64,000 nucleotides of DNA from an uncultured Methanosarcinales archaeon. GTDB taxonomy: Archaea; Nanobdellota; Nanobdellia; Woesearchaeales; GW2011-AR4. The notes beneath the pieces were generated by a model that saw only the letters and a list, made by a program, of their open reading frames with translations, made no database searches and had not been told where the DNA came from. The translations under genes and the position numbers were made by a program. Location of the stretch: assembly GCA_964469645.1 (NCBI GenBank), contig CAYXZV010000003.1:8538-72537 (forward strand), in the 5' to 3' direction. Shown piece by piece: positions 41,237-63,900 of this stretch (position 1 is the first letter of the stretch; every line of letters begins with the position of its first letter).

Positions 41237-41237
41237 A

Positions 41238-44708: not shown

Positions 44709-45353
44709 ATGAAGCGAAAACATAGCCGAAGGATAATAAAAAAACGTTTCCAGGTTGCTATTTTCGGCTCTGCAAGGATAAAAAGAGGAGACTCAAGATA
44801 TAAGCTCATTTATACACTGGCAAAGATGTTGGCACAGGAAGGGATAGATATAGTAACAGGTGGAGGTCCAGGGTTAATGGATGCTGCCTCCAGAGGGCAT
44901 CACGCAGGAAGAAAAAACAAGAAAACATATAGTGTAGGCCTTACAATACACCTACCAAAAGAACAAAAAGAGAGCTATCATTTGGATGTCAAAAAAGATT
45001 TCAACAAATTCTCAAAAAGGCTGGATAAGTTCATAAACTTATCGGATGCAGTAATTGTTGCGCCAGGGGGCGTAGGAACGACCTTGGAAATGATGTATGT
45101 CTGGCAGCTGGTGCAGGTAAAACACTCTTGCGAAATACCCATTATCTTGTTCGGAAAGATGTGGGAAGGTTTTGTAGATTGGATCAAGAAAGGACCATTG
45201 AAAAATAAATTCCTGGACAAAAAAGAGTTAGAACTCCTATACCACACAAGGAACTGTTCTGAAGCGATGAAAGTAATAAATCTAGCATATAAGGAATACA
45301 AAAAAGGTAGAAAGAACATATGCCTAAACATTAAAAAGTACAAGGTCAAATGA
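44709..45353 (+). CDS. LOG-family (TIGR00730) nucleotide-binding protein
   Basis: VAIFGSARI...IVTGGGPGLMDAASRG...VIVAPGGVGTTLEM matches the LOG motifs. Confidence 0.8.
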   Translation: MKRKHSRRIIKKRFQVAIFGSARIKRGDSRYKLIYTLAKMLAQEGIDIVTGGGPGLMDAASRGHHAGRKNKKTYSVGLTIHLPKEQKESYHLDVKKDFNKFSKRLDKFINLSDAVIVAPGGVGTTLEMMYVWQLVQVKHSCEIPIILFGKMWEGFVDWIKKGPLKNKFLDKKELELLYHTRNCSEAMKVINLAYKEYKKGRKNICLNIKKYKVK

Positions 45354-45748
45354 AAAACACAACAGAGGTACGTGTTTATTATGCAGACACCGATCATGGC
45401 AGCGTAGTTTATTATGCAAACTACCTAAAGTGGTTCGAGATAGGGAGAACAGAAGTTTTGAGGAAATTGGGTTTTAATTATTCATATTATGAAAAGAAGA
45501 ATATCATTGCTCCAGTGGTAGAGGTAAAGTGCAATTACAATGAACCTGCAAAATACAATGATCTCATTATAATAAAGACAGCGGTGGAAAAGATAGGCAA
45601 CAGCAGTATTAAGTTCAGTTACAAAATAATAAGGAAGGAGGATAAAAAACTATTGGCAGAAGGATATACTATAAATGTTTTTGTTGACATGAAAACAAAA
45701 AAATCAACTAGCATACCTGAAGAGTTAAGGAAAGCATTAAAAAAATAA
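45350..45748 (+). CDS. YbgC/4HBT-family acyl-CoA thioesterase (hotdog fold)
   Basis: VRVYYADTDHGSVVYYANYLKWFEIGRTE has the catalytic Asp context of YbgC-like thioesterases. Confidence 0.7.
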   Translation: MKNTTEVRVYYADTDHGSVVYYANYLKWFEIGRTEVLRKLGFNYSYYEKKNIIAPVVEVKCNYNEPAKYNDLIIIKTAVEKIGNSSIKFSYKIIRKEDKKLLAEGYTINVFVDMKTKKSTSIPEELRKALKK

Positions 45749-46546
45749 TTAGGATTTTTCTAATTTGTAAATCACAACTTTTGCATCTGAATATACTTTT
45801 TCAAAACCCACTATTGGTTGTAACTTCAAAATTTTATACATAATTGATTTATTATTTACATAATAAATGTTTTCAACAATATCATATTCCACTCCGCTAA
45901 TGTTATAGATGATTCTGGATTTACCATACTCACTATTAGTTACCAATAAATATTGAGAATTGTAATTTTGCATTAGATTTATTGCTTTGATAGGATCGGT
46001 TGTAGTTAAAATTAATCCAACATTAATAATATCTTCATGGTTACTCAATTCCCCTGCTTCTTCGGTATTGAATTTTTTACCTGCATGAACACTTGCAACC
46101 GTAGTCAAAATATCTTGTGACGGATTATATGCAATCACATCTCTTTTTCCAATGCCTCTTACCATATGTCCATAATCCCACCATGTTGTAATTATTGCGT
46201 CCTTAGATGAATTTTCTTTTATCCAATCCATAGAACTTCTGAATTCTGGCATATATGCTCCGGTGAAGGTATAGTCGTCCCACACATATCTTACTTGGTT
46301 CTTATACCCATCTTCAGAAATTACCTTCGTCGTACTATCGACAGTTTCATTACCGCACCATATCTCAGCATACATTCTTTCTAATTGTATTGAATTCGAT
46401 TTTGGATTTTCTATTGCAACATCTTCAGCCCATGATTTAATCCATCTTTGACAAGCCTGCACTTCTTCTTTAGAGATAACCTCTTTTTGACACCCTACAT
46501 TAAAGATTATTAAAAACAGAATTAAAATTAGATATAAATCTTTCAT
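45749..46546 (-). CDS. Secreted/lipid-anchored protein with an STT3/AglB C-terminal (WWDYG) domain-like region
   Basis: Signal peptide with a lipobox-like LIIFNVGC. The internal ITTWWDYGHMVRGIGKRDVIAYNPS and ...ASVHAGKKFNTEEAGELSNHEDIINVGLIL parallel the STT3/AglB segments WWDYGYxI...R-x-hhh-D/N and ...[23 protein letters not shown]. Only 265 aa, with no TM core. Confidence 0.5.
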   Translation of the reverse strand: MKDLYLILILFLIIFNVGCQKEVISKEEVQACQRWIKSWAEDVAIENPKSNSIQLERMYAEIWCGNETVDSTTKVISEDGYKNQVRYVWDDYTFTGAYMPEFRSSMDWIKENSSKDAIITTWWDYGHMVRGIGKRDVIAYNPSQDILTTVASVHAGKKFNTEEAGELSNHEDIINVGLILTTTDPIKAINLMQNYNSQYLLVTNSEYGKSRIIYNISGVEYDIVENIYYVNNKSIMYKILKLQPIVGFEKVYSDAKVVIYKLEKS

Positions 46547-46590
46547 ACTAATTATTCAGTTTATCCAATATATAAACATTCCTATACAAA

Positions 46591-47319
46591 TTAAACCACA
46601 AATATGTCTCCTTCGACTATTTTCTTAAGTTTACCATTACTTAACTTTAGCATCAGATTACAATCACTATCTACATCAACAGCCTCCCCAACATAAGTTC
46701 CGGATAAAGTTTTAGCTCTTATTTTCCTCCCAAGAGTATGTGAATATTTCTTCCAGATTTTTATTATTTCAGTATATTTTTTATTAGTGTAATATTTATA
46801 CAATGAATTGAATTCTTTTATTATTGCTTTTGAAAGTTTTTTGATATCATAATTCTTATTGGTTTCTAATTTTAATGAAGTTGTTTTTTTGATGAGGTTT
46901 TTTCCAAATTTCTTTTGATTAACATTAACTCCAATTCCAATTAATGCATAATTATTATTTTTATTTGTAATTGTCTCTGTCAAAATGCCACAAACCTTTT
47001 TATCATCTATTAAAACGTCGTTTGGCCATTTTACCTGAGCATTTAATTTTGTGATTTTCTTTATTGTTTTGGCAACACTTACTGCAGCAATAAATGTAAG
47101 GTATCTCACATTATCCAAATCATCTTCTTTCAAAGCAATAGTCATGTACAATCCCCCCAATTCAGAACTCCATCCACGATTGAACTTCCCGCGGCCTTTT
47201 TTCTGCTTCTCTGCAACCACTACAATATTATATTTGCCCCCCTTAATTAGAATCTTAGCCTTGTCGTTAGTTGAAGAAAGGGTATTGAAATGATAGAATT
47301 CAAAAACATTATCATTCAT
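46591..47319 (-). CDS. birA: Biotin--[acetyl-CoA-carboxylase] ligase
   Basis: GRGKFNRGWSSELGGLYMTIAL is the BirA GRGRxGRxW-type biotin-binding loop. 242 aa with no N-terminal HTH. Confidence 0.75.
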   Translation of the reverse strand: MNDNVFEFYHFNTLSSTNDKAKILIKGGKYNIVVVAEKQKKGRGKFNRGWSSELGGLYMTIALKEDDLDNVRYLTFIAAVSVAKTIKKITKLNAQVKWPNDVLIDDKKVCGILTETITNKNNNYALIGIGVNVNQKKFGKNLIKKTTSLKLETNKNYDIKKLSKAIIKEFNSLYKYYTNKKYTEIIKIWKKYSHTLGRKIRAKTLSGTYVGEAVDVDSDCNLMLKLSNGKLKKIVEGDIFVV

Positions 47320-49216
47320 TTTGCATTAATTCTTGCCTACCTGCCATAACCCAAGGATTTGGTTTATTTCCATTATGATTGCTTTTTTTCTCCATATACT
47401 TAGCTACGGCAGTTGTGATGATGATTTTCTTTTGTCCGTTCGTCAGTCCTTTCTTATGCAAGCAGTATTTCTTAACAGAACTAAGGATGTCATTTTTTTC
47501 TATGAAAGCCGTCGTAAATCTGCCTCTGACAAAGTTTTTGTTATTCAGAACAGCAAGGTGGAAAGGTATTGTTGTTTCAACTCCCTTGATAATATATTCT
47601 TTAAGGGCTCCTTTCATCCTAGCTATTGCTTCATGCCTATTAGCACCGTAGCATATAAGTAATGACAGTAACGAATCGTAATCTGGTAGCACTTTGTAGC
47701 CCTGATGACATATACTGTTGACCCTGATGCCAGGTCCTCCAGGAGGAAGATAATTATTTATAGCTCCTATAGATGGAGAAAAGTTATTTATCGGGTCTTC
47801 TGCATTAATCCTACATTCTATCGCCCATCCTTCCAATTTGATATGATCTTGATTAAATGCAAGCTTCGCACCGGAAGCTAGCTTAATCTGCTCCTTGACC
47901 AGATCGACACCAGTCACCATTTCAGTGACACCATGCTCAACCTGTATCCTCGTATTCACCTCTATGAAATAGAAGTTTTTATTCTTATCCAGCAAGAATT
48001 CCACTGTACCAGCACCTTCATATTTTGCAGCTGATACTGCCTTTACAGCAGCGTCTCCCATTTTCTCCCTTAACTCATCATTCAAGGCGGGACTCGGACT
48101 TTCTTCCACAAGCTTCTGATGCTTTCTCTGTACACTGCAATCCCTTTCCCCGAGATGGACAACCTTGCCATACTGGTCAGCTAATATCTGGAACTCTATG
48201 TGTTTTGGATTCTCAAGGTATTTTTCCATATATAGTCTTTTGTCTCCAAAGGACAATAATGCTTCTGCCTGTGCACTTTCATACGCTTTCTCCAATTCTT
48301 CTACTTCCCTTATAATCCTCATCCCTTTTCCACCGCCACCTGCAGCAGCCTTAATTATGATCGGAAATCCTAATTTGCTTGCTAACTTAAGCGCATGCTT
48401 CTTGCTTTTTAATGACTTCATTATCCCACCTATAACAGGGACTTTTGCCTTAAGCACGGTTTTCTTTGCTCTTACTTTATCTCCGAGAAGTTCTATTGTC
48501 CTTGATGAGGGTCCTATAAACTTAATTTTGTTCCTCTCACATAGCTTGGCAAACTTAACATTCTCCGCTAAAAACCCGTAACCAGGGTGTATTGCATCCG
48601 ATTTCGTTTTTTTAGCGATACTTATAATTTTGTTAATATCAAGATAACTTATAGCTGGTCCGATGTAACATGCCTTGTCTGCAAACTTTACTGCTAGAGT
48701 GTCCTTATCTGGCTTAGAATATACTAGCACAGTCTCTATGCCCAACTCGCGGCATGCCCTTATGACTCTCAAGGCAATCTCTCCACGATTGGCAATAAGA
48801 ACTCTCTTAAACTTTTTTTCCTTGGATAGTACGGTATACTCTTTCTCAGAAAAGTTTGCAACGCTAAGCCCTTTAGCAAGCATGTCAATAAACGTCTGAG
48901 AAGACTTGCTGCCAACTATTCTCTTCAGTTCAGATCGATTTATATTAGGAATCTTACCGATAACGCTGGAAGTTATAGTATCCCCGAGTTCAGCCAAATT
49001 TGTTTTTTTAAAAATCTTTTTTCTCTTGTCTACTTCCACTATATTGCTTTTTACTAGGTCTTCAACCTCATTGTAGACTAAAGGGGCTGTCTTTTTTGCG
49101 TGTTTAAACGCCTTTTTAAAGATATTATAAGAATATTCAGCAGGTGTCAAACTTTTGTTTAGGGCTGAAACTAACTTCTTCTTGATTCCAAATATGCCTT
49201 TCTTCCTTCTTGTCAT
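47312..49216 (-). CDS. accC: Biotin carboxylase (AccC/PycA-type ATP-grasp) with an uncertain N-terminal extension
   Basis: The core starts at KRVLIANRGEIALRVIRACRELGIETV and includes the ATP-grasp and C-terminal BC domains. The first ~110 aa of the track ORF are Lys-rich and unlike AccC, so the true start may be the internal Met (MLAKGL). Confidence 0.8.
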   Translation of the reverse strand: MTRRKKGIFGIKKKLVSALNKSLTPAEYSYNIFKKAFKHAKKTAPLVYNEVEDLVKSNIVEVDKRKKIFKKTNLAELGDTITSSVIGKIPNINRSELKRIVGSKSSQTFIDMLAKGLSVANFSEKEYTVLSKEKKFKRVLIANRGEIALRVIRACRELGIETVLVYSKPDKDTLAVKFADKACYIGPAISYLDINKIISIAKKTKSDAIHPGYGFLAENVKFAKLCERNKIKFIGPSSRTIELLGDKVRAKKTVLKAKVPVIGGIMKSLKSKKHALKLASKLGFPIIIKAAAGGGGKGMRIIREVEELEKAYESAQAEALLSFGDKRLYMEKYLENPKHIEFQILADQYGKVVHLGERDCSVQRKHQKLVEESPSPALNDELREKMGDAAVKAVSAAKYEGAGTVEFLLDKNKNFYFIEVNTRIQVEHGVTEMVTGVDLVKEQIKLASGAKLAFNQDHIKLEGWAIECRINAEDPINNFSPSIGAINNYLPPGGPGIRVNSICHQGYKVLPDYDSLLSLLICYGANRHEAIARMKGALKEYIIKGVETTIPFHLAVLNNKNFVRGRFTTAFIEKNDILSSVKKYCLHKKGLTNGQKKIIITTAVAKYMEKKSNHNGNKPNPWVMAGRQELMQNE

Positions 49217-49275: not shown

Positions 49276-52059
49276 CTACTCTTTCTCGCCAAGAGATCCA
49301 ATAACATCCCCTAACTTGTCAAAATTAGCTCCAAAAACAACCCAATCTCCCTTATTCATCGCATCAAGGATTGCATCATAATAATCATTTGCTTCTTTAA
49401 TTAAATCTTCTTCTGATTTATCCACACTTGCATCTCCTACAATTTCCACAGTCCTTGATGTTGACGATCCAAAAAGTTTTTGCAGACCTGTAGCCAGGTC
49501 TTTTTCCATAATAACTCTTTCCCCATCAGAAACAATTACTCTCTTTAATTCAGGTAGTTGTCCTTTCTCAGCCTGCAGATATAGTGGCTCTATGTAAAGC
49601 AAACTATTTTCAATAGGTATCACAAGTAGGTTTCCTCTAGTTACTCTGGAACCCTGCTGGCCCCATAAAGTGAGCTGCTGGGATATTTCAGAATCCTGAT
49701 CAATCCTTGCTTCTATCTGTAAAGGGCCATAAACCAGCTTATCCTTCGGAAATTTGAAAAGCAATAATTTGCCATAATCCTCCCCATCAGACCTTGCAGC
49801 AAACCAAGCATTCATATTGTCTTTCTTAAGGGGAGTAAATGTAGTCATCAAAACAAACTCTTCTTTTCTTTCTCCGGGTAATTTCATTATTATATAATAG
49901 GGCTCAACTTCTATCTGCTGACCAGTTCCATAAATCTCACTAGGTATCTCCCATGCATCTTCCTTGTTATAGAAGACAGTTGGATCCTCCATATGGTATG
50001 TGCTGTAGATTGAAGATTGCACTTTGAAAAGGTCTTCCGGATATCTTATGTGTTCTTTCAGAGATTCTGGAAATTCATCAAAACTCTTGAATTGTCCAGG
50101 AAATATATTTGCATACACTTTCATCAAAGGATCCTTTTCATCGATAATATAATAGGTAACATCTCCATTGTATGCATCGACAACGATCTTAACTGAATTC
50201 CTGATATAATTTATCCTTCCGAACTTTTGAGAGTAGGGGAAATTACCTGTAACAGTATAAGCATCCTGGATCCACAATAACTTGCCTTCATTGATGACTA
50301 TGTAAGGGTCATCATCAAGAAGAAGGAATGGTGTTATCTTTGATATCCTCTCCTGGATATTTCTTAGAAACATCATTCTACTCTCTGAAGTTATATCAGA
50401 CGATAAAAGGATCTTAATATCTGCAAATCTTACTGCCATGAAAAGTTTTTTGACAAAAGAGTCCAACACTACACCGCCAGCACCGTCATAGTTTATGTAT
50501 TCGTTAGTGTTTCCTTTTGGAAAATCGAATTCGTCCGTATTAGTGTTTACAAGAATAAAATCATTCTCATTTTCGCCATAATAAATCCTTGGCTGGTCTA
50601 TTTTAAGGTCATTTCCTGCAACGGTATATGATGGAGGGATGTCCTTAACAAGATAATTCGGGAGACCTTGATCAGTAACTTTGTTTACTGGACTTACAAC
50701 AACTCCAAATCCATGGCTATAGACCATATGCAGATTTACCCATGTCTTCGCATTATCAGCTATCTGGTTCTGGTCAAGTTCACGTGGAGCAAGCATGACC
50801 TGGGTATATTTTCCGTTAATACTATACCTATCTATATCAATTCCCGATAGATCATAATAAAGCCTTATCTCTTGAGTCTGCTTATATGTCTGTGTTAATG
50901 GCCTGTAATCAAGGATCCTTACGTTGTCTATAGTCTCACTTGACTTATCAATAACATTGGCATCCAGGGTCTGCTCAACATCAAAATCTCTCTCTTCGAC
51001 ATCCAGACCGTACGCAATCTTTGTAAATTTTATGTTATTCTCAAGGTAAGGCTTCTCTAAGTTGATCTCATTCGGGCTTACCTTAAGCGACTGCACAATC
51101 TGTGGTATAATTGATTGACCAACAACGACGAAAGCCACATACAAAACCAAAACAAAAATGACAAGGTGTCTTTTCCCTATCTTCTGTGATTTCGAAAAGA
51201 AAAAAATCCATATATAAAAAAGAATCGCGACAAAAATAGCAAAGACCATCAGGAACTTTACCACAGGTATAAAAATAACAACATCTGTATAGCCGGCACC
51301 TACAACTATTCCGCTCTCTGAGTACATAACAAGAAATCTCTCAAGGTAATGCCTGGCCGCAAGTAGAAGAAATATAAGCGAGAAAAGTATAGCCATATGA
51401 GTCATAGCGGATTTCTTAACCTTCGAGATTTCCTGCCAAAAATTGAATGATTTGTAGACTGTGTTAGTATTTGGATCAACCTGAGGGGTAAAAAAAGAGA
51501 TTATGATGTTATAGAGATAATATAGAAGCACAACTATTGTTGTAATTATAACAGCCGCAAATACAAACCTCCACAAAACAAGAAAGAATGGAAGAGAAAA
51601 AACATAGAAAGCCACATCTTTTCCGAGTATTGGATCCTGAAGACCAAATGGAACCTGGTTTAGGTATTGTAGGAATGTAAGCCATGCTGCTGATGCCGAG
51701 AGTCCTTGAAACAGCGACAGCAGGGCAATTATTGAGATTCCTATTTTAAAAGATATCTTGGATACTTGAAACTTGGAAGCTATCCATAAGTTTATCGCTG
51801 CAAATATGAAGAAAGACAATGCTGCTACAATAAAAAAGATTATTTTTGCAAATAAGCTTATGGTAAATATTTCTTTGAATTCTAAAGCGGAAAACCAAAG
51901 ATAATCAGTATAAAGGGCCACAATACCTGAGATTGAGAACACAAGAAGTACTACAATGAATAAGAATACATATTGCAGATAGCTTCTTATATTAGACATA
52001 CAAGCGAGTACAACCTTCATATTTTTAAAAGTTACTGAAAAAACAGCATTATTTTTCAA
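49276..52059 (-). CDS. Large polytopic membrane protein, UPF0182-like
   Basis: 927 aa. N-terminal ~300 aa has about 7 TM segments and is followed by a very large soluble region. Size and topology match the UPF0182 family (recollection; no motif check possible). Confidence 0.4.
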   Translation of the reverse strand: MKNNAVFSVTFKNMKVVLACMSNIRSYLQYVFLFIVVLLVFSISGIVALYTDYLWFSALEFKEIFTISLFAKIIFFIVAALSFFIFAAINLWIASKFQVSKISFKIGISIIALLSLFQGLSASAAWLTFLQYLNQVPFGLQDPILGKDVAFYVFSLPFFLVLWRFVFAAVIITTIVVLLYYLYNIIISFFTPQVDPNTNTVYKSFNFWQEISKVKKSAMTHMAILFSLIFLLLAARHYLERFLVMYSESGIVVGAGYTDVVIFIPVVKFLMVFAIFVAILFYIWIFFFSKSQKIGKRHLVIFVLVLYVAFVVVGQSIIPQIVQSLKVSPNEINLEKPYLENNIKFTKIAYGLDVEERDFDVEQTLDANVIDKSSETIDNVRILDYRPLTQTYKQTQEIRLYYDLSGIDIDRYSINGKYTQVMLAPRELDQNQIADNAKTWVNLHMVYSHGFGVVVSPVNKVTDQGLPNYLVKDIPPSYTVAGNDLKIDQPRIYYGENENDFILVNTNTDEFDFPKGNTNEYINYDGAGGVVLDSFVKKLFMAVRFADIKILLSSDITSESRMMFLRNIQERISKITPFLLLDDDPYIVINEGKLLWIQDAYTVTGNFPYSQKFGRINYIRNSVKIVVDAYNGDVTYYIIDEKDPLMKVYANIFPGQFKSFDEFPESLKEHIRYPEDLFKVQSSIYSTYHMEDPTVFYNKEDAWEIPSEIYGTGQQIEVEPYYIIMKLPGERKEEFVLMTTFTPLKKDNMNAWFAARSDGEDYGKLLLFKFPKDKLVYGPLQIEARIDQDSEISQQLTLWGQQGSRVTRGNLLVIPIENSLLYIEPLYLQAEKGQLPELKRVIVSDGERVIMEKDLATGLQKLFGSSTSRTVEIVGDASVDKSEEDLIKEANDYYDAILDAMNKGDWVVFGANFDKLGDVIGSLGEKE

Positions 52060-52593: not shown

Positions 52594-52620
52594 TTGATGT
52601 AAATTCTTAAAGGTGTAAAA

Positions 52621-55217: not shown

Positions 55218-55230
55218 CTTTTGAGGCACT

Positions 55231-56370: not shown

Positions 56371-57127
56371 TCTTTTTCTTTCTTAGAAATCCTTTTAGTA
56401 TCTCACTGTTTTCTTTAGTTCTTGAACATTTAATATATGACTCAGCTTCAAAATCATCCTGTAAGTCTTTAAGGTAGTCGCTATTGACTGATTTTTTTGT
56501 GAGTTCCAATGCCTTCACCGGTTTTTTTGCTATCTCTGAAACTAAATCGCCCAAAAAAGAATCTATTTTATCCTCTGCAACCAGGAAATCTACTAAACCC
56601 CACTCAAGAGCTGTTTTGCTGTCTATCACTCTTCCTGTAAAAAGCATATATTTTGCCTTTCCAAGCCCGATTAGTCTTGGTAATCTTTTTGTGCCACCAA
56701 GTGGAGCCACTGTTCCAAGAGATGTTTCAGGGTGTATAAACTTTGCAGAAGGAAGTGCTATCCTCATATCACAAGCCATTGCCAGTTCATTCCCTCCACC
56801 CACTGCATGTCCATTAATAACTGCTATGACTGCTTGAGGCAGATTTTCTATCTTAGAAAAAACACTCTGAACAAAATTCATTTGCTCTTTTGCTTTTTGT
56901 AAGCTAAGGCTACCCACTTGTTTTTCCCATGATATGTCTCCTCCTGCACAAAAAGATTTACCAGAACCTTTTATTATTATGACTTTCAAGTCGCTTTTTT
57001 TTATTTTGTCAAGAAGTTTATCCAGCTCATTAATCATGCTTAAATCAAAACAATTCAGCTTTTCGGGATTCTTGATAGTAATAGTTCCTGCATGTTCTTT
57101 GCTATCAAAGAGTATTGTACCTTTCAT
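56363..57127 (-). CDS. Enoyl-CoA hydratase/isomerase (crotonase) family
   Basis: FCAGGDISW...AVINGHAVGGGNELAMACD and catalytic Glu context GGTKRLPRLIG. 254 aa. Confidence 0.8.
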   Translation of the reverse strand: MKGTILFDSKEHAGTITIKNPEKLNCFDLSMINELDKLLDKIKKSDLKVIIIKGSGKSFCAGGDISWEKQVGSLSLQKAKEQMNFVQSVFSKIENLPQAVIAVINGHAVGGGNELAMACDMRIALPSAKFIHPETSLGTVAPLGGTKRLPRLIGLGKAKYMLFTGRVIDSKTALEWGLVDFLVAEDKIDSFLGDLVSEIAKKPVKALELTKKSVNSDYLKDLQDDFEAESYIKCSRTKENSEILKGFLRKKKIN

Positions 57128-57131
57128 TTTG

Positions 57132-58532
57132 TTATGATTTTGGGTTTAATATATGTATAGCTTTCCCCATTGTTGCTTCTGCAGCTTCCATTAAGCTCTC
57201 GCTCAACGTAGGGTGGGGGTGTATTGTCAGAGCCAAATCATCCAAAGTAGCTCCCATCTTTATCGCTAAAGACGCTTCACTTATGAGGTCTGATGCATCA
57301 TTGCCTATAATCTGGACACCTATTATCTTACTGCTTTTTTCATCTGCAATTATTTTGACAAATCCTTCTGTTTCGTTTTTCGTCATTGCTCTGCTTGAGA
57401 CTCTAAAAGGGAACTTTCCTGTTTTTACCTTTATGCCTTTATCTTTTGCTTCTTCCTCACTTAATCCTACGATAGCTATCTCGGGGTCAGTGAATATCAC
57501 AGCTGGAACAACTGCATTTTCATAACTCTCTTTGTATCCTGCAATTACTTCTGCAACGGATTTTCCCTGGCTGGATGCCTTATGAGCCAGCATTGGCCCT
57601 ACAGAAACGTCACCTATTGCATATATACTTCCATCATCTGTTCTCAAATTCCCATCTACTTTGACAAATCCTTTATCATCCAATTTTACCTTCGTATTTT
57701 CAAGACCAATCTCATCAGCTATTGGTTTTCTCCCGACAGCAACTAAAACATTATCAGCATCCAACAATATTTTCCCTTTATCTTTTGAGCTTATACCTAC
57801 CTTGCCGTCTTCAAACTTCTCTGCTTTTGAATTAAGATGTATTTTCACGTCAATTTTTTCAAGATTTTTTTGCAGAACATCCACTATGCTTCTATCAAAT
57901 CCTGGCAGAATCTGGCTTGTCATCTCAACAACATGAACCTTGCTCCCAAGTTTTGCATAAACAGTTCCAAGCTCAAGACCTATATAACCTCCTCCAACTA
58001 CTACCAAATTCTTAGGAATATCATCAAGATACAAAGCATCTGTTGAACTTATTATCTTCTTTCCATCGAATTTGAAGTTTGGAAGCTCAATTGGCTTGGA
58101 GCCTACTGCAATTATCGCATTCTTAAAATCCACATAAGAATTTCCATTAGTTATTTTCAATCTGTTGGAACTTTCAAAAAAACCTGTTCCTTTAATAACA
58201 TTTATCTTATTTTGTTTGCATAACAGCTCTATGCCTTTATTAAGCTTAGAGATTATCTTGTTTTTCCATTCCTGCATCTTAGCAAAATCCACAGAGACAT
58301 TATCTGCATTTATTCCCATATCAGAAGATTTCTTTATCTTGTCAAAAAGTTCTGATGCGTATATCATTGCTTTTGATGGAATGCAACCATAATTAAGGCA
58401 TATTCCTCCTAACTTGCCCTTATCTACTAAGACTACTTTTTTGCCTAGCTGAGCCAATCTTATAGCAGCCACATATCCGCCAGGACCTGCGCCTATTACA
58501 ACAACTTCAGTTTTTATTGAATTATCTGTCAT
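57132..58532 (-). CDS. lpd: Dihydrolipoyl dehydrogenase
   Basis: VVVIGAGPGGYVAAIRLAQLGKK...GGICLNYGCIPSK (redox-active CxxxxC), with an HPHPTLSE C-terminal interface motif. Confidence 0.85.
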   Translation of the reverse strand: MTDNSIKTEVVVIGAGPGGYVAAIRLAQLGKKVVLVDKGKLGGICLNYGCIPSKAMIYASELFDKIKKSSDMGINADNVSVDFAKMQEWKNKIISKLNKGIELLCKQNKINVIKGTGFFESSNRLKITNGNSYVDFKNAIIAVGSKPIELPNFKFDGKKIISSTDALYLDDIPKNLVVVGGGYIGLELGTVYAKLGSKVHVVEMTSQILPGFDRSIVDVLQKNLEKIDVKIHLNSKAEKFEDGKVGISSKDKGKILLDADNVLVAVGRKPIADEIGLENTKVKLDDKGFVKVDGNLRTDDGSIYAIGDVSVGPMLAHKASSQGKSVAEVIAGYKESYENAVVPAVIFTDPEIAIVGLSEEEAKDKGIKVKTGKFPFRVSSRAMTKNETEGFVKIIADEKSSKIIGVQIIGNDASDLISEASLAIKMGATLDDLALTIHPHPTLSESLMEAAEATMGKAIHILNPKS

Positions 58533-58639
58533 TTTATTCTTACATAGGTTCTGTTATCTATTAATAAATCTAACGTTTTGGTTAGGATAAAAGGATAAGA
58601 TTTAAAAAGCGGATATTGTTACAGTTTTAAGTGGGGGCA

Positions 58640-59617
58640 ATGGATACGAATTTACAACAGCCAAAATCGTGGAAACCAGACAGACCAGTATCTAAAGGTG
58701 CTACAACATTTCATGATGCGGTTATAGATGCTTCTTGGAATCATCTTTGTCTTGGTAAACTCATAGAAGTCGCAAGCCCAAATATCCACGACAACGATAT
58801 AGTAGTCGATTTTGGTTGTGGTACGGGCACATCTTCCATCATAATTCTGGAAAAGTTAAAGACCGACATTAGGTTATGGCTGGTTGATAATTCCCCTGCA
58901 TGGTTAGGAAAAGCCTATGAATTTCTTAGCCAGCATCAAAATGTAGATTTTTTTCTGTTAGAAAAGAAGGGTAAAGGGTATTCAACTCTCGCAGAAACTG
59001 TAGGTAAGGAAACTGTAAATCATGTACTATCTGCAAATACTGTACACTTGATACCAAACCTCAAAGAAACCTATAAAGGTATTGCGGACGCATTAAAAAT
59101 CAAAGGGACATTTGTCTTTAACACAGGCAATGTTACAAGAGAAGGAAGAAAAGAAGGTGTCTTAATGCTAGACTCTACAGTGTACAGGGTTCACGACATA
59201 GCTATGGATATTATACGCAATGACTCAAGATTTGAGAAGTACCGGAAGGATCTTGACAAGACTATAGAAGCTTATACTCCATTAAGAAAATTTGTCTTTC
59301 CGGACCCAAGACCAATACAAGAGCACCTGGATGCATTAAAAGAAGCAGGATTTGATTGCTCAGAACCAATATACCAATGCTTTAGGCTTAAGTATAGTGA
59401 CTGGATCAATTTCTTAAGAATTCGAAGGCTGCAGATAGGAATACTTCCAGAGGTAGGTGGTAAGGACGCGACACCTGAAGAAGAGAAAGATAGAGATGAC
59501 TTAATTGTTATGTCCGCAAAAAAACTGTTCAAAGAACTGGAAGAACAAAATCCATTTGCAGATGACAAAACTTACCTTGGCGAATGGACTTATGTGTCTG
59601 CAACAAAAAACCCTTAA
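58640..59617 (+). CDS. Class I SAM-dependent methyltransferase
   Basis: Motif I VVDFGCGTGTSS. The track start 58631 is GTG, so ATG 58640 is used. GC content is visibly higher than in neighbouring genes. Confidence 0.6.
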   Translation: MDTNLQQPKSWKPDRPVSKGATTFHDAVIDASWNHLCLGKLIEVASPNIHDNDIVVDFGCGTGTSSIIILEKLKTDIRLWLVDNSPAWLGKAYEFLSQHQNVDFFLLEKKGKGYSTLAETVGKETVNHVLSANTVHLIPNLKETYKGIADALKIKGTFVFNTGNVTREGRKEGVLMLDSTVYRVHDIAMDIIRNDSRFEKYRKDLDKTIEAYTPLRKFVFPDPRPIQEHLDALKEAGFDCSEPIYQCFRLKYSDWINFLRIRRLQIGILPEVGGKDATPEEEKDRDDLIVMSAKKLFKELEEQNPFADDKTYLGEWTYVSATKNP

Positions 59618-59625
59618 TTTTAAAG

Positions 59626-60360
59626 ATGTTAAAAGGAAAAACTGCATTAGTTACAGGAGCCTCAAGAGGCATAGGTAATGCAATTGCCCTAGCATTAGCT
59701 AAAGAGGGCGCAAATGTTATTATTAATTATTCCAGTAATAGTAAAAAAGCAGAAGAGCTAGCTGGAAAAATTAACAAACTGGGTTCTAAGGCTATTACAT
59801 TAAAAGCTGATGTCTCGGATTTTGATGAAGTCGGGAGAATGGTAGATGATATCAAAAAAGTCTTCAATAAGGTTGACATACTTGTCAACAATGCAGGTAT
59901 TGTCAGGGACAGGACATTAAACAATATGACTATAGATGAATGGAATAGTGTAATAAATACCAACTTAAATGGTATTTTTAATGTGACTAAACAAGTCTTG
60001 CCTTTGATAGGGAACGGAGGAAGAATCATCAATATATCCTCCATTATAGCTCAATATGGTAACTTTGGACAGTGCAATTATGCAGCTGCAAAAGCCGGCA
60101 TTATTGGTTTCACAAAATCCTTGGCAAAGGAATTAGGCAAGAAAGGCGTAACTGTAAATGCCGTTGCTCCAGGATTCGTAAAAACAGATATTACAAAAGA
60201 TATACCCTTCTTTAAGAGGAAAATACTAAAGTACATGATACCTTTAAAGGATGAAGGCCAACCAGAGGACATAGCAAATGCTGTTGTATTTCTAGCCTCA
60301 GAAAAATCGAGATACATAACTGGCTCAGTAATAAATGTTGATGGCGGGCTTGCTTTCTGA
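59626..60360 (+). CDS. fabG: 3-oxoacyl-[ACP] reductase (SDR)
   Basis: MLKGKTALVTGASRGIGNAIA...NAG...YAAAKAG (YxxxK) is classic FabG. The track start 59584 overlaps the MTase by 34 nt in another frame; the canonical N-terminus begins at ATG 59626. Confidence 0.8.
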   Translation: MLKGKTALVTGASRGIGNAIALALAKEGANVIINYSSNSKKAEELAGKINKLGSKAITLKADVSDFDEVGRMVDDIKKVFNKVDILVNNAGIVRDRTLNNMTIDEWNSVINTNLNGIFNVTKQVLPLIGNGGRIINISSIIAQYGNFGQCNYAAAKAGIIGFTKSLAKELGKKGVTVNAVAPGFVKTDITKDIPFFKRKILKYMIPLKDEGQPEDIANAVVFLASEKSRYITGSVINVDGGLAF

Positions 60361-60364
60361 TTTT

Positions 60365-60474
60365 GTACGTTCCCGTACAACAGGGTATTGGGATGCTTTC
60401 AGCATCCGAGACTGATGTCTCGGGTGATTGAGCGTAGCGAACATCACCCTATACGCTAGTGTGCAGGCATGCAC
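60365..60474 (+). ncRNA. Candidate structured RNA or DNA element: five consecutive perfect hairpins, GC-rich
   Basis: GTACG-TTCC-CGTAC; GGATGC-TTTCA-GCATCC (or CCGAGAC-TGAT-GTCTCGG); GGGTGAT-N14-ATCACCC; GTGCA-GGCA-TGCAC. An outer AGGGT/ACCCT pairing gives a cloverleaf-like shape, but the stem and loop sizes do not fit tRNA. Local GC is about 50% against a background of about 30%. Confidence 0.3.
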
Positions 60475-60573
60475 AAAAACCATTAGATTTATATATGACT
60501 CCCGCATCCTCAGGGGTGAGTTTTCTTAGGAATTTCTTAAGAAACTTAACAAATATATGAGGTAAAAATAAAT

Positions 60574-60930
60574 ATGTACAACCAAGATAGAAACTTTGGG
60601 CAAAGTAACGCTCCAGTTAATGTTGGAGATGAGATAGACGTAAAAATAGAGGCTGTGGGTGAAAAAGGAGACGGTATTGCAAAGAAAGACGGCTTTGTTT
60701 TATTTGTCCCAAACACAAAAGAAGGGCAGGATGTGAAGATAAGGGTGACAAAAGTCCTGCGAAAAGTGGGCTTTGCAGAAGTTGTTGGTGAAGCTGAAGC
60801 AACTCCTCAACAAGAAAGCGCGCCGGCAGAATCAAGTTCTGAACCAGCACAGGAATCAGAGCAACCTGCAGTTGAAGAACCCCAAGTAGAAGATAGCGAA
60901 GATTTCGGGGAAGAAGAAAAGAAAGAGTAA
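60574..60930 (+). CDS. Small TRAM-domain protein with an acidic C-terminal tail
   Basis: VNVGDEIDVKIEAVGEKGDGIAKKDGFVLFVPNTKEGQDVKIRVTKVLRKVGFAEVV is a TRAM beta-barrel (as in stand-alone archaeal TRAM proteins). The tail is rich in E, S, P and Q. GC content is elevated. Confidence 0.7.
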   Translation: MYNQDRNFGQSNAPVNVGDEIDVKIEAVGEKGDGIAKKDGFVLFVPNTKEGQDVKIRVTKVLRKVGFAEVVGEAEATPQQESAPAESSSEPAQESEQPAVEEPQVEDSEDFGEEEKKE

Positions 60931-60990
60931 ATTTACTTCTTTTTGTTTTTTTAAATTAGTTTTAAATAGTTGTAAGTATAAATTATCACA

Positions 60991-61527
60991 ATGAGATTGT
61001 TCATAGCTATTGAAATCCCTGAAGATATAAAAGAATATATGGTTGAAGTACAAAGAAACATAGATAACAATCAAAATAAGGTCAGATTTGTTAATAAGGA
61101 CAGAATTCACTTGACACTAAAATTTCTTGGAGAAGTACAACTCAATGATTTAGAAAACATCAAAACCAACCTTAAAAAGATAACCTTTAGTCCTTTCTCA
61201 GTTAATTTAGAGAAAATTGGTGTTTTCCCAGATGAAAACTACATAAAAGTAATTTGGATTGGTTTAAAGCCAGAAGAACCTATATTGAAGCTACAAAAGG
61301 ATATTGACGAAAAGCTTGAAGAATTTTTCAAGAAAGAAAAAGACTTCAGACCACACTTAACTTTAGCAAGGGTAAAATACATAGAAGACAAAGAAAATTT
61401 TGTCAACAAATTAAAAAATATGAAAATCGAAAATAAAAAAATAAACATAACCAATTTCAAACTGGTAAAAAGCACTTTGACTCCAGAAGGTCCTGTTTAT
61501 GAGGATCTGGAAGTGTTTGGGAAATAA
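60991..61527 (+). CDS. thpR: RNA 2',3'-cyclic phosphodiesterase / 2'-5' RNA ligase (2H family)
   Basis: Two H-x-T-x motifs: HLTLKFLGE and HLTLARV. 178 aa. Confidence 0.75.
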   Translation: MRLFIAIEIPEDIKEYMVEVQRNIDNNQNKVRFVNKDRIHLTLKFLGEVQLNDLENIKTNLKKITFSPFSVNLEKIGVFPDENYIKVIWIGLKPEEPILKLQKDIDEKLEEFFKKEKDFRPHLTLARVKYIEDKENFVNKLKNMKIENKKINITNFKLVKSTLTPEGPVYEDLEVFGK

Positions 61528-61530
61528 GGA

Positions 61531-61542
61531 AACCTTTTTAAA
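61531..61542 (+). promoter_or_regulatory. BRE/TATA box AACCTTTTTAAA upstream of the uS2 gene
   Basis: Recurrent motif; ATG at 61629. Confidence 0.4.
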
Positions 61543-61628
61543 TTAAGATTATTTCCCATCCAATATTACCAAATCGCTGCATGAGGTAATAAAAACTGCA
61601 GTTCAATTCTGAACTTGCATTATATCCA

Positions 61629-62228
61629 ATGGTTGAAGAAAAATTTTTAGTACCGACAGACGAATATCTAAAGTCCGGGATACATATAGGTACAAAGTTC
61701 AAGACAAGGTACATGGAAAAATTCATCTACAAAACAAGGCCTGATGGGTTGTCAGTTCTTAACTTACAGAAAATAGATGAAAGAATAGGCATAGCTGCGA
61801 AATTTATGGCGCAATATGCTCCAGAAGATATGTTGGTCGTAGGGAGAAGAGAAAGTGCATGGAAACCGATAAAGATGTTTGGTAATCTTACCGGAACAAA
61901 AGTTTTTGCTGGTAGATATCCTCCAGGAATTCTAACCAATCCAAATCTTGATGAATACATAGAAGTTAAAGTGGTTTTGATCGTTGATGCAGGCCCCGAT
62001 AAGAATGTCGTTGAAGATGCAATAAAAGTAGGGATTCCGGTAGTGGCATTATGTGATACAAACAACCAGTCCAATAATATAGATCTTGTTGTTCCTAGCA
62101 ACAATAAAGGCAAGAAAAGCCTTGGGTTGTTTTTCTGGATTCTTACAAGGGAATACTTAAGGGCCCGTGGTGTTTTAAAGAAAAATGAAGATCTTAAGGA
62201 AAAGGTAGAGGACTTTACAGAAGAGTGA
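61629..62228 (+). CDS. rps2: 30S ribosomal protein S2 (uS2), archaeal/eukaryal type
   Basis: YLKSGIHIGTKFKT...DGLSVLNLQKIDERIGIAAKF...PIKMFGNLTGTKVFAGRYPPG...VDAGPDKNVVEDAIKVGIPVVALCDTNN matches the archaeal S2 / eukaryotic SA-p40 pattern. Confidence 0.85.
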   Translation: MVEEKFLVPTDEYLKSGIHIGTKFKTRYMEKFIYKTRPDGLSVLNLQKIDERIGIAAKFMAQYAPEDMLVVGRRESAWKPIKMFGNLTGTKVFAGRYPPGILTNPNLDEYIEVKVVLIVDAGPDKNVVEDAIKVGIPVVALCDTNNQSNNIDLVVPSNNKGKKSLGLFFWILTREYLRARGVLKKNEDLKEKVEDFTEE

Positions 62229-62249
62229 ATGCTCTAGATATTTCTTTAT

Positions 62250-63242
62250 TTAAACCATATTAAGGAGTTGATCTATTGCTTTTCTAAGGTCAACACCTTC
62301 ATAAAGCACCCCATATGCCTGAGAAATTAAAGGTATGTTTATTCCTTTTTTCATACAAATTTCATAAATTATTTTTGTGCTATTTATCCCTTCAGCCACC
62401 ATCCCATGCATTTCTTTTTTTATTTGATCTGTAGTTTTTCCACTTGCAAGCATCTCTCCAAAAAGCCTGTTTCTACTGTGATGGCTGTAACATGTAACAG
62501 CAAGATCACCAACTCCTGCAAGACCATAACAGGTAGCCTTTTTTGCTCCGAATTGTTTTGATATACTGCTTATTTCAGATAGGCCTAATGTAATTATGCT
62601 CGCTTTGGCATTATCCCCTAAATGTAGGCCATCACACACCCCTATTGCTAAGGCCACTATATTTTTTACAACGCCGCATATCTCTACCCCAGCCACATCA
62701 TCATGAGGGTATGATTTAAAATTAGTTGTACTGAAAATTTTGCACAGGGATTCTCTCACATCCTTGTGTTCTGAAGCTATAACTGTTGCTGTAGGCAACT
62801 TCTTTGAGACTTCTTCTGAATGGTTTGGTCCGGACAGGACAGCAATTTTTGCTTCTTTTGATAATTCTTCTTTCAGAACCTCAGATATTCTCTTCCCGGT
62901 AGACATTTCCATGCCTTTCACAGCATGAACAACAATAGCATCTTTATCTATAAGCTCAGAAAATGATTTTGCCACACCCCTAAGAAAAGGTGAAGGAACA
63001 ACGAAAATGATTATATTGCTGTCTTTAACAGAATCCTCTATCGAATTTGTTGCTATTACTGTTTTTGGTATTTCAACATTTTTTAGATATTTCTTATTTT
63101 CCCTTGTTTCATTTATTTCTTCAACGAGTTCCTTTCTTCTCGCCCATAAATGTACATCGTATCCTTTTCCCCCGAGCAATACAGCTAACGTAGTCCCCCA
63201 ACTTCCAGCTCCAATAACACTTATCTTCTTAGTCTCATTCAT
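62250..63242 (-). CDS. gpsA: NAD(P)H-dependent glycerol-3-phosphate dehydrogenase
   Basis: ISVIGAGSWGTTLAVLLGGKGYDVHLWAR...NVEIP is the GpsA N-terminal Rossmann pattern. 330 aa. Confidence 0.8.
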   Translation of the reverse strand: MNETKKISVIGAGSWGTTLAVLLGGKGYDVHLWARRKELVEEINETRENKKYLKNVEIPKTVIATNSIEDSVKDSNIIIFVVPSPFLRGVAKSFSELIDKDAIVVHAVKGMEMSTGKRISEVLKEELSKEAKIAVLSGPNHSEEVSKKLPTATVIASEHKDVRESLCKIFSTTNFKSYPHDDVAGVEICGVVKNIVALAIGVCDGLHLGDNAKASIITLGLSEISSISKQFGAKKATCYGLAGVGDLAVTCYSHHSRNRLFGEMLASGKTTDQIKKEMHGMVAEGINSTKIIYEICMKKGINIPLISQAYGVLYEGVDLRKAIDQLLNMV

Positions 63243-63243
63243 T

Positions 63244-63900
63244 TTAAAAATTGTATTTTTGATTCGACAATCTTGCTATTTCCTTCATTAGATCATTAGT
63301 TATCTTTCTTAATAAACTTCTAGTCACCTTCTTACCATAATACTCATCGAAATACATTAACTTGCCAATATTCATTGTTGCCTTTTTTAACTTTGGAATT
63401 TTTTTCCCTTTTGGTAATATCTTAAAGGTTCCTATAAAACCTATAGGCAGTACTGGAACTTTAGCAGCTAATGCGAGTCTTGCTGTTCCGGTTTTTCCTT
63501 CTTGGATTTTCCTTGTTAATGTTCTTGTGCCTTCCGGATAAATAAGGACAATAGCTCCTTTTCTTAGGTAAGAGAGGGCCGAATTTAAGGCTTCCTCTCC
63601 TTTATCTCTGTCTATAGGGATAAATGTTATGTATTTTGTCCACAGACTATGCCACGTGCTCTGAGTTAGAGTCTCAAAGTGTTCTTTTTTGGCGATAAAA
63701 TGTATTTTTCTGTTGATATGGGGTATAACTACACAACTCACAATGACATGGTCCATGTAACTGGAATGATTTGGGACTATTATGAATGGTTTATCGTTTT
63801 TCGGTAGATTTTCTAGTCCTGTAACTTCCTTGATCCATACAAGTTTAACAAATGGGGGTATTATGTGCCTAACTATTGGCGCAATCTTTCGTCTTTTCAT
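63244..63900 (-). CDS. plsC: 1-acyl-sn-glycerol-3-phosphate acyltransferase-like (PlsC family)
   Basis: HX4D motif VPNHSSYMDHV, the FIAKKE block and the IYPEGTRT block. It begins 1 nt after the gpsA stop. Confidence 0.7.
   Translation of the reverse strand: MKRRKIAPIVRHIIPPFVKLVWIKEVTGLENLPKNDKPFIIVPNHSSYMDHVIVSCVVIPHINRKIHFIAKKEHFETLTQSTWHSLWTKYITFIPIDRDKGEEALNSALSYLRKGAIVLIYPEGTRTLTRKIQEGKTGTARLALAAKVPVLPIGFIGTFKILPKGKKIPKLKKATMNIGKLMYFDEYYGKKVTRSLLRKITNDLMKEIARLSNQKYNF

Follow-up and report, generated by a model that had tools for sequence, protein, structure and literature searches.

Between 45.3 and 64.0 kb of a 64,000-nucleotide stretch of archaeal DNA (contig CAYXZV010000003.1; hereafter the window, by which we mean the whole stretch analysed) lies a conserved, vertically inherited supercluster of acyl-glycerolipid genes, to which genes for a carboxyltransferase, a biotin carboxyl carrier protein (BCCP) and the biotin transporter component BioY at 39.7-42.2 kb also belong. 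Its core is a compact operon of two PlsC-family acyltransferase (AT) genes and gpsA, encoding sn-glycerol-3-phosphate (G3P) dehydrogenase. We consider it on balance probable, from the families and motifs encoded, that enzymes of the cluster produce G3P and attach two acyl groups to it with acyl-CoA as donor, the chains being made or elongated on coenzyme A without acyl carrier protein (ACP). By family membership the acyl genes constitute a hybrid, in which predicted condensation of archaeal type is combined with reduction, dehydration and glycerol acylation of bacterial type, and not a transplanted bacterial type II fatty acid synthase (FAS II). In outline the phenomenon has already been published, and this is not a new kind of system; it is a clear, well-organised example. 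What we add is how the operon is built, that both AT paralogs were retained, the design of the ACP-free hybrid with its DUF35::DUF362 scaffold, and the link between a methyltransferase and FabG.

The gpsA gene (62250-63242, - strand) encodes an NAD(P)H-dependent G3P dehydrogenase of bacterial type. Its product matches the Pfam domains NAD_Gly3P_dh_N (PF01210, 190 bits), NAD_Gly3P_dh_C (PF07479, 176 bits) and GPD_NAD_C_bact (PF20618), exceeds two NCBIfam cut-offs (NF000942, 393 > 257; NF000940, 321 > 202), and displays the motifs GAGSWG (GxGxxG), KN, GDLxxTC and SRNR, which in GPD1/GpsA structures serve NAD binding and the substrate site. The best PDB matches are bacterial (Thermotoga 1z82, 233 bits; Coxiella 3k96), the archaeal Archaeoglobus enzyme 1txg reaching only 99 bits. 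Separated from gpsA by a single nucleotide is the gpsA-proximal AT gene (63244-63900, -), encoding a 218-residue protein that matches PF01553 at 97 bits (cut-off 23) and has PlsC of T. maritima (5kym) as its best PDB match. A preliminary description of this DNA had noted a PlsC-type acyltransferase directly beside gpsA, and both this adjacency and the bacterial character of the two enzymes are borne out. After a gap of 4 nt, the last 96 nt of a second, gpsA-distal AT gene (63905-64000, -) run to the window edge, the remainder lying beyond it. The gene is complete in locus L001, which is 100% identical to positions 52250-64000, extends past the window end, and encodes at L001:8691-9338 a 215-residue protein with PF01553; the core unit is therefore AT-AT-gpsA.

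The two ATs are 47% identical to each other, and both retain intact HX4D (NHSSYMD) and EGTR (YPEGTR) motifs. When 129 acyltransferases were arranged by neighbour-joining, the gpsA-proximal ATs of five genomes formed a group of their own (distance 0.33-0.48) that did not include the distal copies (0.47-0.68); the duplication is therefore older than these lineages, and neither copy has been lost. Judged from the sequences, a pair retained in this way fits the pattern expected of two non-redundant steps. The matches listed from a scan of genome contigs with GpsA included those of Proteocatella (45% identity) and Bdellovibrionales (29%). Since the Proteocatella gene, the closest bacterial gpsA retrieved, sits in the usual der-plsY-gpsA context, the archaeal operon was not taken over as such from a bacterium.

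On its gene content we assign the window to a marine DPANN archaeon of the Woesearchaeota, because the closest named relatives of its GpsA (55-66% identity), its acyltransferase (57-67%) and the DUF362 protein described below (51-76%) are all proteins from metagenome-assembled genomes (MAGs) labelled 'Candidatus Woesearchaeota archaeon' or 'Nanoarchaeota archaeon'. Contigs of Tara Oceans and of further marine metagenome assemblies encode the exact GpsA protein, and an identical sequence has been assembled independently in at least six datasets. A Marine Group II origin, which the Tara provenance and the literature might suggest, is rejected in view of these named relatives. Three markers on the contig, uS2_euk_arch (248.5 > 211.5), RadB and aMBF1, exceed curated NCBIfam equivalog cut-offs; RadA and RPA lie just past the window end, and the cluster stands between RadA/RPA and uS2 on contigs of several independent assemblies. 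The archaeal identity of the host is thus upheld, and the mis-binning that the preliminary description had entertained is excluded, because the archaeal markers share the independently re-assembled contig. The window is AT-rich (G+C 0.30-0.39) and uniform in base composition. The G+C content of the cluster genes equals that of neighbouring genes, as would be expected if they had been acquired long ago and then passed on vertically, the history that earlier phylogenies had proposed; the cluster genes are now vertically inherited within Woesearchaeota, and recent transfer finds no compositional signal. One PlsC homolog (P0203, 60% identical to the window protein) bears the NCBI label 'Flavobacteriales bacterium' despite its membership of the Woesearchaeal family, and is probably a mis-binned contig of a public MAG.

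Genes for a putative acyl-chain pathway adjoin the core unit. One operon on the + strand encodes a FabZ-like (R)-3-hydroxyacyl dehydratase of the FabA/FabZ hotdog family (52096-52593; PF07977, 72.5 bits, cut-off 23), a thiolase of SCP2/archaeal type (thiolase 1, 52621-53748), a fusion of a DUF35-like Zn-ribbon/OB domain to DUF362 (53748-55217; PF04015 at residues 126-318) followed by a C-terminal helical region, and a second thiolase (thiolase 2, 55231-56370) that is 62% identical to the first; the thiolase 1 and DUF362 genes overlap by 1 nt. The catalytic His (GHF in GHFKDFPIMPG) and Glu (IIEGLGQ) of the dehydratase are kept and align with FabZ active-site motifs, and its best PDB matches are bacterial FabZ enzymes. 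Thiolase_C_1 is matched at 161 and 152 bits by the two thiolases, the first of which also matches Thiolase_N and scores 365 bits on PRK06064 (cut-off 420). Both have 7yvy and 6esq (the Methanothermococcus thiolase) as their best PDB matches, and alignment to 7yvy shows that both keep the catalytic Cys (AAC(S/A)GGG) and His (GHP).

The fusion protein between the thiolases was recognised through its predicted structure. Its AlphaFold2 (AF2) model has a mean confidence (pLDDT) of 86, with values of 84-92 across residues 1-100, and Foldseek matched its N-terminal ~100 residues to DUF35 partners of known thiolase complexes, namely 7pxp (BbsA), 6ok1 (ChsH2-DUF35), 5m3k (PhlB), 6esq and 9vbt (MucB), at a probability of 1.00, target template-modelling (TM) scores of ~0.5 and E-values of 1e-4 to 4e-3. 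Pfam DUF35 models gave no match to the isolated N-terminal domain, the relationship being seen by structure only; a JGI annotation of one homolog reads 'DUF362/OB-fold protein'. For the whole model the top matches are LarA-like nickel-pincer enzymes (9q3j/9q3k), a similarity that we ascribe to the central DUF362 region. The form of this protein in L010 is 375 residues long and lacks the C-terminal part. Within the thiolase genes, segments 52969-53268 and 55594-55893 encode ~90 residues (FPAQNAL...ISKEESD) with three protein differences at 90% DNA identity, a sign that one tandem copy has converted the other or that this segment is very strongly constrained.

The reductase of the putative pathway is a FabG-type 3-oxoacyl reductase (59584-60360, +), a classical short-chain dehydrogenase/reductase (SDR) with TGxxxGIG, NNAG and S...YxxxK motifs and a best PDB match of 261 bits to 2uvd. 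Its margin over the TIGR01830 cut-off is small (301.3 > 297.75), and acetoacetyl-CoA reductase models score nearly as high. FabG and FabZ enzymes form a stereochemically matched, (R)-specific pair. Coupled to fabG, and always preceding it, is a gene for a class I SAM methyltransferase (58631-59617, +; Methyltransf_31/12/25), and in L012 the two are fused as one protein of 573 residues (L012:14422-16143). The methyltransferase family is rare, with 114 representatives at E<=1e-3 among 1.84 billion, and its single-sequence AF2 model has a pLDDT of 40.7. DisA is its sole PDB match, a weak one (E = 0.003), and none was found at the level of CMAS or BioC. The DisA match, together with homologous domains in proteins of 1-5 kaa, raised the idea of a C-methyltransferase of the polyketide synthase (PKS) type; we rejected it on finding that the long proteins are not PKSs, the two with informative Pfam matches being concatenations of unrelated enzymes (AceK, PEPCK, TIM and others). 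Two further acyl-CoA enzymes are encoded in the cluster: a crotonase-family enoyl-CoA hydratase (56363-57127, -; ECH_1, 172.7 bits; short-chain enoyl-CoA hydratase model, 195 < 394) and a YbgC/FadM-family acyl-CoA thioesterase (45350-45748, +; 4HBT_2; TIGR00051, 113.6 > 68.7).

A biotin-dependent carboxylase is represented by all its parts: a biotin carboxylase, AccC (47312-49216, -; TIGR00514, 659 > 626.5, residues 136-577), a biotin-protein ligase of BirA catalytic type (46591-47319, -; TIGR00121, 194.9 > 83.1), and a carboxyltransferase with BCCP (39737-41627, +; Carboxyl_trans, 608.8 bits; Biotin_lipoyl, 69.7 bits). The carboxyltransferase is of the 12S/PccB type, not AccA/AccD, and scores 750 bits against a cut-off of 999 on the mmdA subfamily model; its substrate may be acetyl- or propionyl-CoA. 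Every gene that the preliminary description had named between 45350 and 63900 is present, but this carboxyltransferase and its BCCP lie outside that interval, beside the BioY gene (41646-42233, +; PF02632, 142 bits). BioY is followed, within 41646-44368, by a thioredoxin-like protein, an ABC ATPase and a CbiQ-type T component, a series that looks like a complete biotin importer of the energy-coupling factor type right after the carboxylase genes and would fit biotin auxotrophy. The N-terminal extension of AccC (residues 1-135) is basic and has no family match; the long form (622-634 residues) is kept in L012 (622) and L014 (633), and the extension is therefore probably real and not a mis-called start.

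That these genes are clustered is not due to chance, because the arrangement recurs in five other Woesearchaeal lineages, in which GpsA is 56-64% or the DUF362 protein 51-62% identical to that of the window. The six AT-AT-GpsA lineages comprise the window species, GCA_016180235.1, GCA_004196275.1 (locus L010), GCA_016187465.1, GCA_019322485.1 (L013) and JGI 3300076214 (L014), the last with a locus that ends inside the proximal AT, the second copy being unseen there. The AT-AT-gpsA unit is flanked by uS2-LigT-TRAM on one side and usually by RadA/RPA on the other. In the window the archaeal core genes for a TRAM protein, the 2'-5' RNA ligase LigT and ribosomal protein uS2, recognised with Pfam and the uS2 model given above, occupy 60574-62228 (+), and the same three adjoin gpsA in L009, L010, L012 and L014. 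The triad of thiolase, DUF362 and thiolase genes is kept in L009/L011, L010 and L014, and in L012 an SDR gene stands between the DUF362 gene and the second thiolase. A FabZ-like gene precedes the triad in L009/L011, L012 and L014, the L010 locus beginning inside the first thiolase. The carboxyltransferase, BCCP, BioY, BirA and AccC genes adjoin that for FabZ in L012.

Two relatives join the core unit to further acyl-CoA genes on one strand, those for acyl-CoA dehydrogenase (ACAD) and electron-transfer flavoprotein (ETF) lying upstream of AT-AT-GpsA in both. In L010 the order is thiolase-DUF362-thiolase-SDR-zinc finger-ACAD-EtfB-EtfA-radical SAM-AT-AT-GpsA; in L013 a FabK-like gene, an SDR gene and one without assignment are followed by ACAD-EtfB-EtfA-AT-AT-GpsA-DUF212-Dxr. 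The L013 EtfA carries ferredoxin-type domains, a feature of Etf systems that bifurcate electrons in the reductive direction. In L013 (2677-3606 and 11714-12844) the FabK-like protein, a member of the NMO family (125.6 < 453 bits), and four CoA transferases are encoded upstream of ACAD/Etf-AT-AT-GpsA, and dxr lies two genes after gpsA; the proximity of dxr to gpsA matches the published co-location of methylerythritol phosphate (MEP) pathway and fatty-acid genes. The radical SAM protein of L010 (L010:7102-8673, 523 residues), encoded between EtfA and the ATs, has a B12-binding domain and weak HpnJ/BchE-like and 'lipid biosynthesis B12/rSAM' matches, and could belong with the Mss/Tes-like enzymes of lipid modification that Woesearchaeia are reported to have. 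In L014 the place of the methyltransferase-FabG pair is taken by a block (L014:14923-18593) of canonical archaeal HMG-CoA synthase (470 > 244 bits), thiolase, DUF35, MaoC and SDR genes, so that what lies between the thiolase triad and uS2 is not the same in every lineage.

A bacterial FAS II is not what the window encodes. Among its ~70 open reading frames (ORFs) scanned with Pfam there is no ACP, FabD, 3-oxoacyl-ACP synthase (KAS; FabH/FabF/FabB) or FabI/K/L/V, and a phmmer search with E. coli ACP gave no match in the window or in 14 related loci (297 kb); that no ACP was found points to acyl-CoA as the acyl donor. The label of a bacterial-style toolkit, given to these genes in the preliminary description, is accordingly overstated, the thiolases being of archaeal SCP2 type (7yvy, 6esq), the DUF35 module a fusion and the carboxylase of 12S/PccB type. 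The suggestion that head groups could come from a CDP-alcohol phosphatidyltransferase operon at 1909-6981 is weakly supported, and we do not build on it. The membrane protein in question (1909-2778, +) has a weak, partial signature of that family, below threshold on PF01066 (16.5 < 22 bits) and far below it on NF040950 (archaetidylinositol-phosphate synthase, 28.9 << 180, E 9e-7); its motif reads DCSDGEVAR, a long spacer and G-x3-D-x3-H, the last catalytic Asp being replaced by His, and its operon partners are proteins without assignment, a PHP protein and an adenosine 5'-phosphosulfate (APS) kinase.

We propose that GpsA would reduce dihydroxyacetone phosphate to sn-G3P, and that the two AT paralogs would acylate it at sn-1 and then at sn-2, one of them standing in for the missing PlsB/PlsY, to yield an ester lipid of the phosphatidic acid type. 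The donor would be acyl-CoA and not acyl-ACP. In the supply of acyl chains, the thiolase pair on its DUF35 scaffold would perform the condensation step, FabG would form the (R)-3-hydroxyacyl intermediate and the FabZ-like enzyme would dehydrate it, and an enoyl-CoA reductase encoded elsewhere in the genome, of the Bcd/EtfAB type (relatives have Bcd/EtfAB or a FabK-like protein encoded directly upstream of the ATs), would end the cycle.

Several observations weigh against this reconstruction. The dehydratase, called a true FabZ in the preliminary description, keeps the catalytic His and Glu but scores under the NCBIfam equivalog cut-offs (NF000582, 104.7 < 113; TIGR01750, 103.2 < 155). The ATs are likewise PlsC-like in their motifs but reach 83.0 and 83.7 bits on TIGR00530 (1-acylglycerol-3-phosphate O-acyltransferase), under its cut-off of 102.95, so that the exact acceptor is left unassigned by the model. 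The Foldseek TM-score of the LarA-like DUF362 domain is low, at 0.35. Neither an enoyl reductase, an acyl-CoA synthetase, CdsA/CarS nor convincing head-group enzymes were found in the window, and the malonyl- or methylmalonyl-CoA that the carboxylase would yield is not required by a cycle built on thiolases. A membrane-synthesis role of archaeal PlsC/PlsY was held unlikely in the passage of Coleman et al. that treats it (PMC6431249), and a Black Sea study (PMC11868695) assumes that these DPANN only modify host lipids and cannot make the building blocks.

Of the alternatives, a catabolic role survives best, although we regard it as unlikely. The genes would then serve beta-oxidation or the fermentation of short-chain acyl-CoA, with the carboxylase acting on propionyl-CoA, GpsA in glycerol-phosphate or redox metabolism, and the ATs co-located incidentally. 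Crotonase, thiolase and ACAD/ETF are indeed classic parts of beta-oxidation and in that respect count against the synthetic interpretation; the carboxyltransferase is of the propionyl-CoA-carboxylase/methylmalonyl-CoA type, and CoA transferases lie near the cluster in L012 and L013. Huang et al. (PMC8421398) read Bcd/EtfAB as fermentative redox balancing, and G3P dehydrogenase is, in the relevant passage of another source (PMC6431249), not exclusive to lipid synthesis. The window itself, however, provides only the hydratase and thiolases of a beta-oxidation set; ACAD is absent from it, ACAD/ETF being found in the relatives L010 and L013, and the crotonase has no (S)-3-hydroxyacyl-CoA dehydrogenase (3HCDH) partner, no such gene exceeding the Pfam threshold in the window and none being found in the syntenic blocks. 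The ketoreductase and dehydratase are instead of the (R)-specific FabG/FabZ types used in synthesis, the packing of AT-AT-GpsA is invariant across lineages, two of which have this unit directly after ACAD/Etf in the same orientation, and the ferredoxin-type domains of the L013 EtfA also argue against catabolism.

Close behind, and in our estimate also unlikely, is salvage, in which fatty acids or lysolipids taken from a bacterial host or the environment would be re-esterified, the ATs and GpsA serving this purpose only and the thiolases, FabG, FabZ, crotonase and thioesterase trimming or adjusting the chains instead of building them anew. DPANN archaea are usually host-dependent, and lipid scavenging is assumed in two studies (PMC11868695, PMC8421398); public MAGs annotate these acyltransferases as lysophospholipid acyltransferases, and the lack in the window of ACP, KAS and enoyl reductase, together with the presence of the YbgC thioesterase, would suit such a role. 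Yet the presence of a dedicated GpsA in the operon favours a backbone made de novo, and a conserved pair of non-redundant AT paralogs is what acylating free G3P in two successive steps would call for. In relatives, moreover, all four steps of a reductive set are encoded beside the ATs, and neither an acyl-CoA synthetase nor a lipase was seen in the cluster.

A specialised acyl or polyketide-like product attached to glycerol, such as a methyl-branched lipid or pigment made by FabZ/ApeI-like, FabG/FlxB-like, methyltransferase and thiolase activities, seems to us very improbable. It draws on faint ApeI-like/ApeP-like matches of the dehydratase, a score of 257 bits for FabG on the flexirubin FlxB model, the methyltransferase-FabG fusion in L012 and the DisA match of the methyltransferase; but the FabG and FabZ models outscore the pigment models, the long methyltransferase-domain proteins are not PKSs and the DisA match stands at E = 0.003 only, and KS, ACP and AT-domain genes are not present. 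Finally, that a bacterial contig or chimeric assembly has been mistaken for an archaeal one, as the Flavobacteriales label of P0203 and the bacterial-type sequences of GpsA, PlsC and FabZ might suggest, is a prospect so slight as to be negligible, given uS2_euk_arch, RadB and aMBF1 on the same contig with RadA and RPA just beyond the window, the identical sequence in at least six independent datasets, the uniform base composition, and the synteny with archaeal core genes kept in five other lineages.

Synthesis of G3P and its acylation from acyl-CoA, the interpretation that we prefer, can be compared with several established systems. The bacterial phosphatidic acid pathway (GpsA with PlsB or PlsX/PlsY, and PlsC) shares GpsA and PlsC-family enzymes with intact motifs, but the window cluster has no PlsB, PlsX or PlsY, and a second PlsC paralog would replace the first acyltransferase. 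Thiolase-DUF35 complexes (thiolase/HMG-CoA synthase/DUF35, 6esq; BbsAB, 7pxp; PhlABC, 5m3k; Ltp2-ChsH2, 6ok1; MucABC, 9vbt) likewise place an SCP2-type thiolase beside a DUF35 module; here, in contrast, DUF35 is fused to the DUF362/LarA-like domain and encoded between two paralogous thiolases, the complex being predicted from genes and fold. Unlike the 6esq-type complex, HMG-CoA synthase is not encoded in the window, and a separate set of HMG-CoA synthase, thiolase and DUF35 genes occurs in L014.

An ACP-independent route of archaeal fatty-acid synthesis was reportedly put forward as a hypothesis by Dibrova and colleagues in 2014. That hypothesis and reverse beta-oxidation resemble the present case in that a thiolase replaces KAS, FabG and hotdog enzymes act on CoA esters, ACP is absent and Bcd/EtfAB (here in relatives) are available. 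They differ in that the genes described here are linked to a G3P-acylation operon, an obvious destination for acyl-CoA, and in that the dehydratase of the window is FabZ-like and not MaoC-like, MaoC being found in L014.

Components of this system have been recorded before in the same lineage. GpsA in Woesearchaeota appears in a 2016 tabulation (Yokobori 2016, PMC5059525); PlsC/PlsY in DPANN bins are treated in one section of a later account as transfers from Bacteria (Coleman 2019, PMC6431249); a Woesearchaeal clade with a bacterial MEP pathway encoded near bacterial fatty-acid synthesis genes and G3P dehydrogenase features in a passage of Castelle 2021 (PMC8204110); and FabG/FabI/FabZ of DPANN from oxygen-deficient zones are called ACP-pathway genes in an excerpt of Zhang 2024 (PMC10936187). 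Homologs of Mss and Ger in Woesearchaeia were reported in 2022 and 2025. In Woesearchaeota subgroup J, Huang et al. 2021 (PMC8421398) found the MEP pathway and Bcd/EtfAB without geranylgeranylglyceryl phosphate synthase (GGGPS) or digeranylgeranylglyceryl phosphate synthase (DGGGPS), and judged the subgroup unable to make membrane lipids; the terms 'fatty acid' and 'glycerol-3-phosphate' are never used there. The portions of the published Woesearchaeota and DPANN accounts on which we draw thus cover the same lineage and the same gene families (G3P dehydrogenase, PlsC/PlsY, fatty-acid genes), but give presence and absence or brief context. Not described in them are the AT-AT-gpsA operon with its ancient AT duplication, the triad of two thiolases and DUF35::DUF362, the coupling of the methyltransferase to FabG, and the missing ACP; in contrast to the 'ACP-pathway' genes as they appear in the cited excerpt of Zhang 2024, no ACP was found near any cluster examined here. 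The value of the present case is therefore in its architecture and testability, not in discovery, since the idea is already in the literature.

A further parallel is provided by Marine Group II/III (Poseidoniales), for which gpsA, plsC homologs and fatty-acid genes without sn-glycerol-1-phosphate (G1P) dehydrogenase are mentioned in passages of two sources (Villanueva 2017 as cited in PMC6962369; Rinke 2019, PMC6461757). As far as those passages extend, these too are uncultured marine archaea with bacterial-type G3P/ester genes and a hypothesis of a 'mixed or bacterial-like membrane'. They differ in phylum, the relatives of the window being Woesearchaeota/Nanoarchaeota and not Thermoplasmatota, and Marine Group II keeps GGGPS/DGGGPS, again on the evidence of those passages, whereas Woesearchaeota subgroup J is reported to be without them (PMC8421398).

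The lipid divide, with isoprenoid ethers on G1P in archaea and acyl esters on G3P in bacteria, has long been a puzzle in the study of eukaryogenesis and of how cells first evolved, one that is approached mainly through exceptions found in nature. Bacterial PlsY/PlsC have lately been reported to accept G1P as well as G3P (PMC13400652). The locus offers a compact, conserved and cloneable test case, consisting of a three-gene AT-AT-gpsA operon among archaeal core genes with a plausible ACP-free supply of acyl-CoA adjoining. It bears on the usual assumption that the DPANN abundant in oxygen-deficient waters rely entirely on lipids from their hosts, and on whether fatty-acid biomarkers in such waters can be archaeal. 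A bolder proposal, which we hold to be unlikely, is that the clade, reported to lack GGGPS/DGGGPS, builds its membrane mainly from self-made G3P diacyl lipids of bacterial type, by way of an ACP-free hybrid synthase and a PlsC pair independent of PlsB/PlsY. If this were true, the hybrid synthase would comprise a two-thiolase complex on a DUF35::LarA-like scaffold, a methyltransferase-coupled FabG, the FabZ-like dehydratase and Bcd/EtfAB, and the divide would have archaea occurring in nature on its bacterial side, making their acyl chains by a route not described before.

Some further genes lie in or among those of the cluster. Dihydrolipoyl dehydrogenase (Lpd; 57132-58532, -; TIGR01350, 570 > 408.8), whose gene forms a pair with that for the crotonase, is syntenic in L009 and L014. 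A UPF0182 protein of 927 residues (49276-52059, -; PF03699, 922 bits), divergent from the FabZ operon, has a counterpart in the equivalent place in L014 and is absent from L012. Between the thioesterase and BirA genes, an ORF at 45749-46546 (-) encodes a 265-residue protein with a hydrophobic N-terminus ending in Cys, as in lipoproteins, and a faint AglB-core-like match. A 'nosZ-like' CuA protein beside fatty-acid genes is mentioned in a passage of Zhang et al. (PMC10936187); the CuA motif CxxxCxxxHxxM occurs in none of the window ORFs, that at 45749-46546 included.

The window also holds a lone 5S rRNA gene (32546-32661, -; 71 bits), its sole Rfam match, with 16S and 23S genes not nearby, and no tRNA genes in its 64 kb. 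At 481-6981, a sulfatase gene is divergent from an operon encoding four proteins without a significant Pfam match (the first being that at 1909-2778), followed by a PHP phosphoesterase and the APS kinase; the region may be a module for sulfation linked to 3'-phosphoadenosine 5'-phosphosulfate or for a phosphodiester polymer. A large glycan-biosynthesis island extends over 10276-31176 and 35584-38914. It includes several NDP-sugar epimerases/dehydratases, a phosphoheptose-isomerase-like SIS protein, a transaldolase, a PfkB kinase and a cytidylyltransferase, possibly a heptose route of bacterial style, as well as a carbamoyltransferase, two SGNH/AlgX-like acyl-hydrolases, a Wzx-like flippase, UDP-glucose dehydrogenase, GT2/GT4 transferases and a PMT_2-like transferase.

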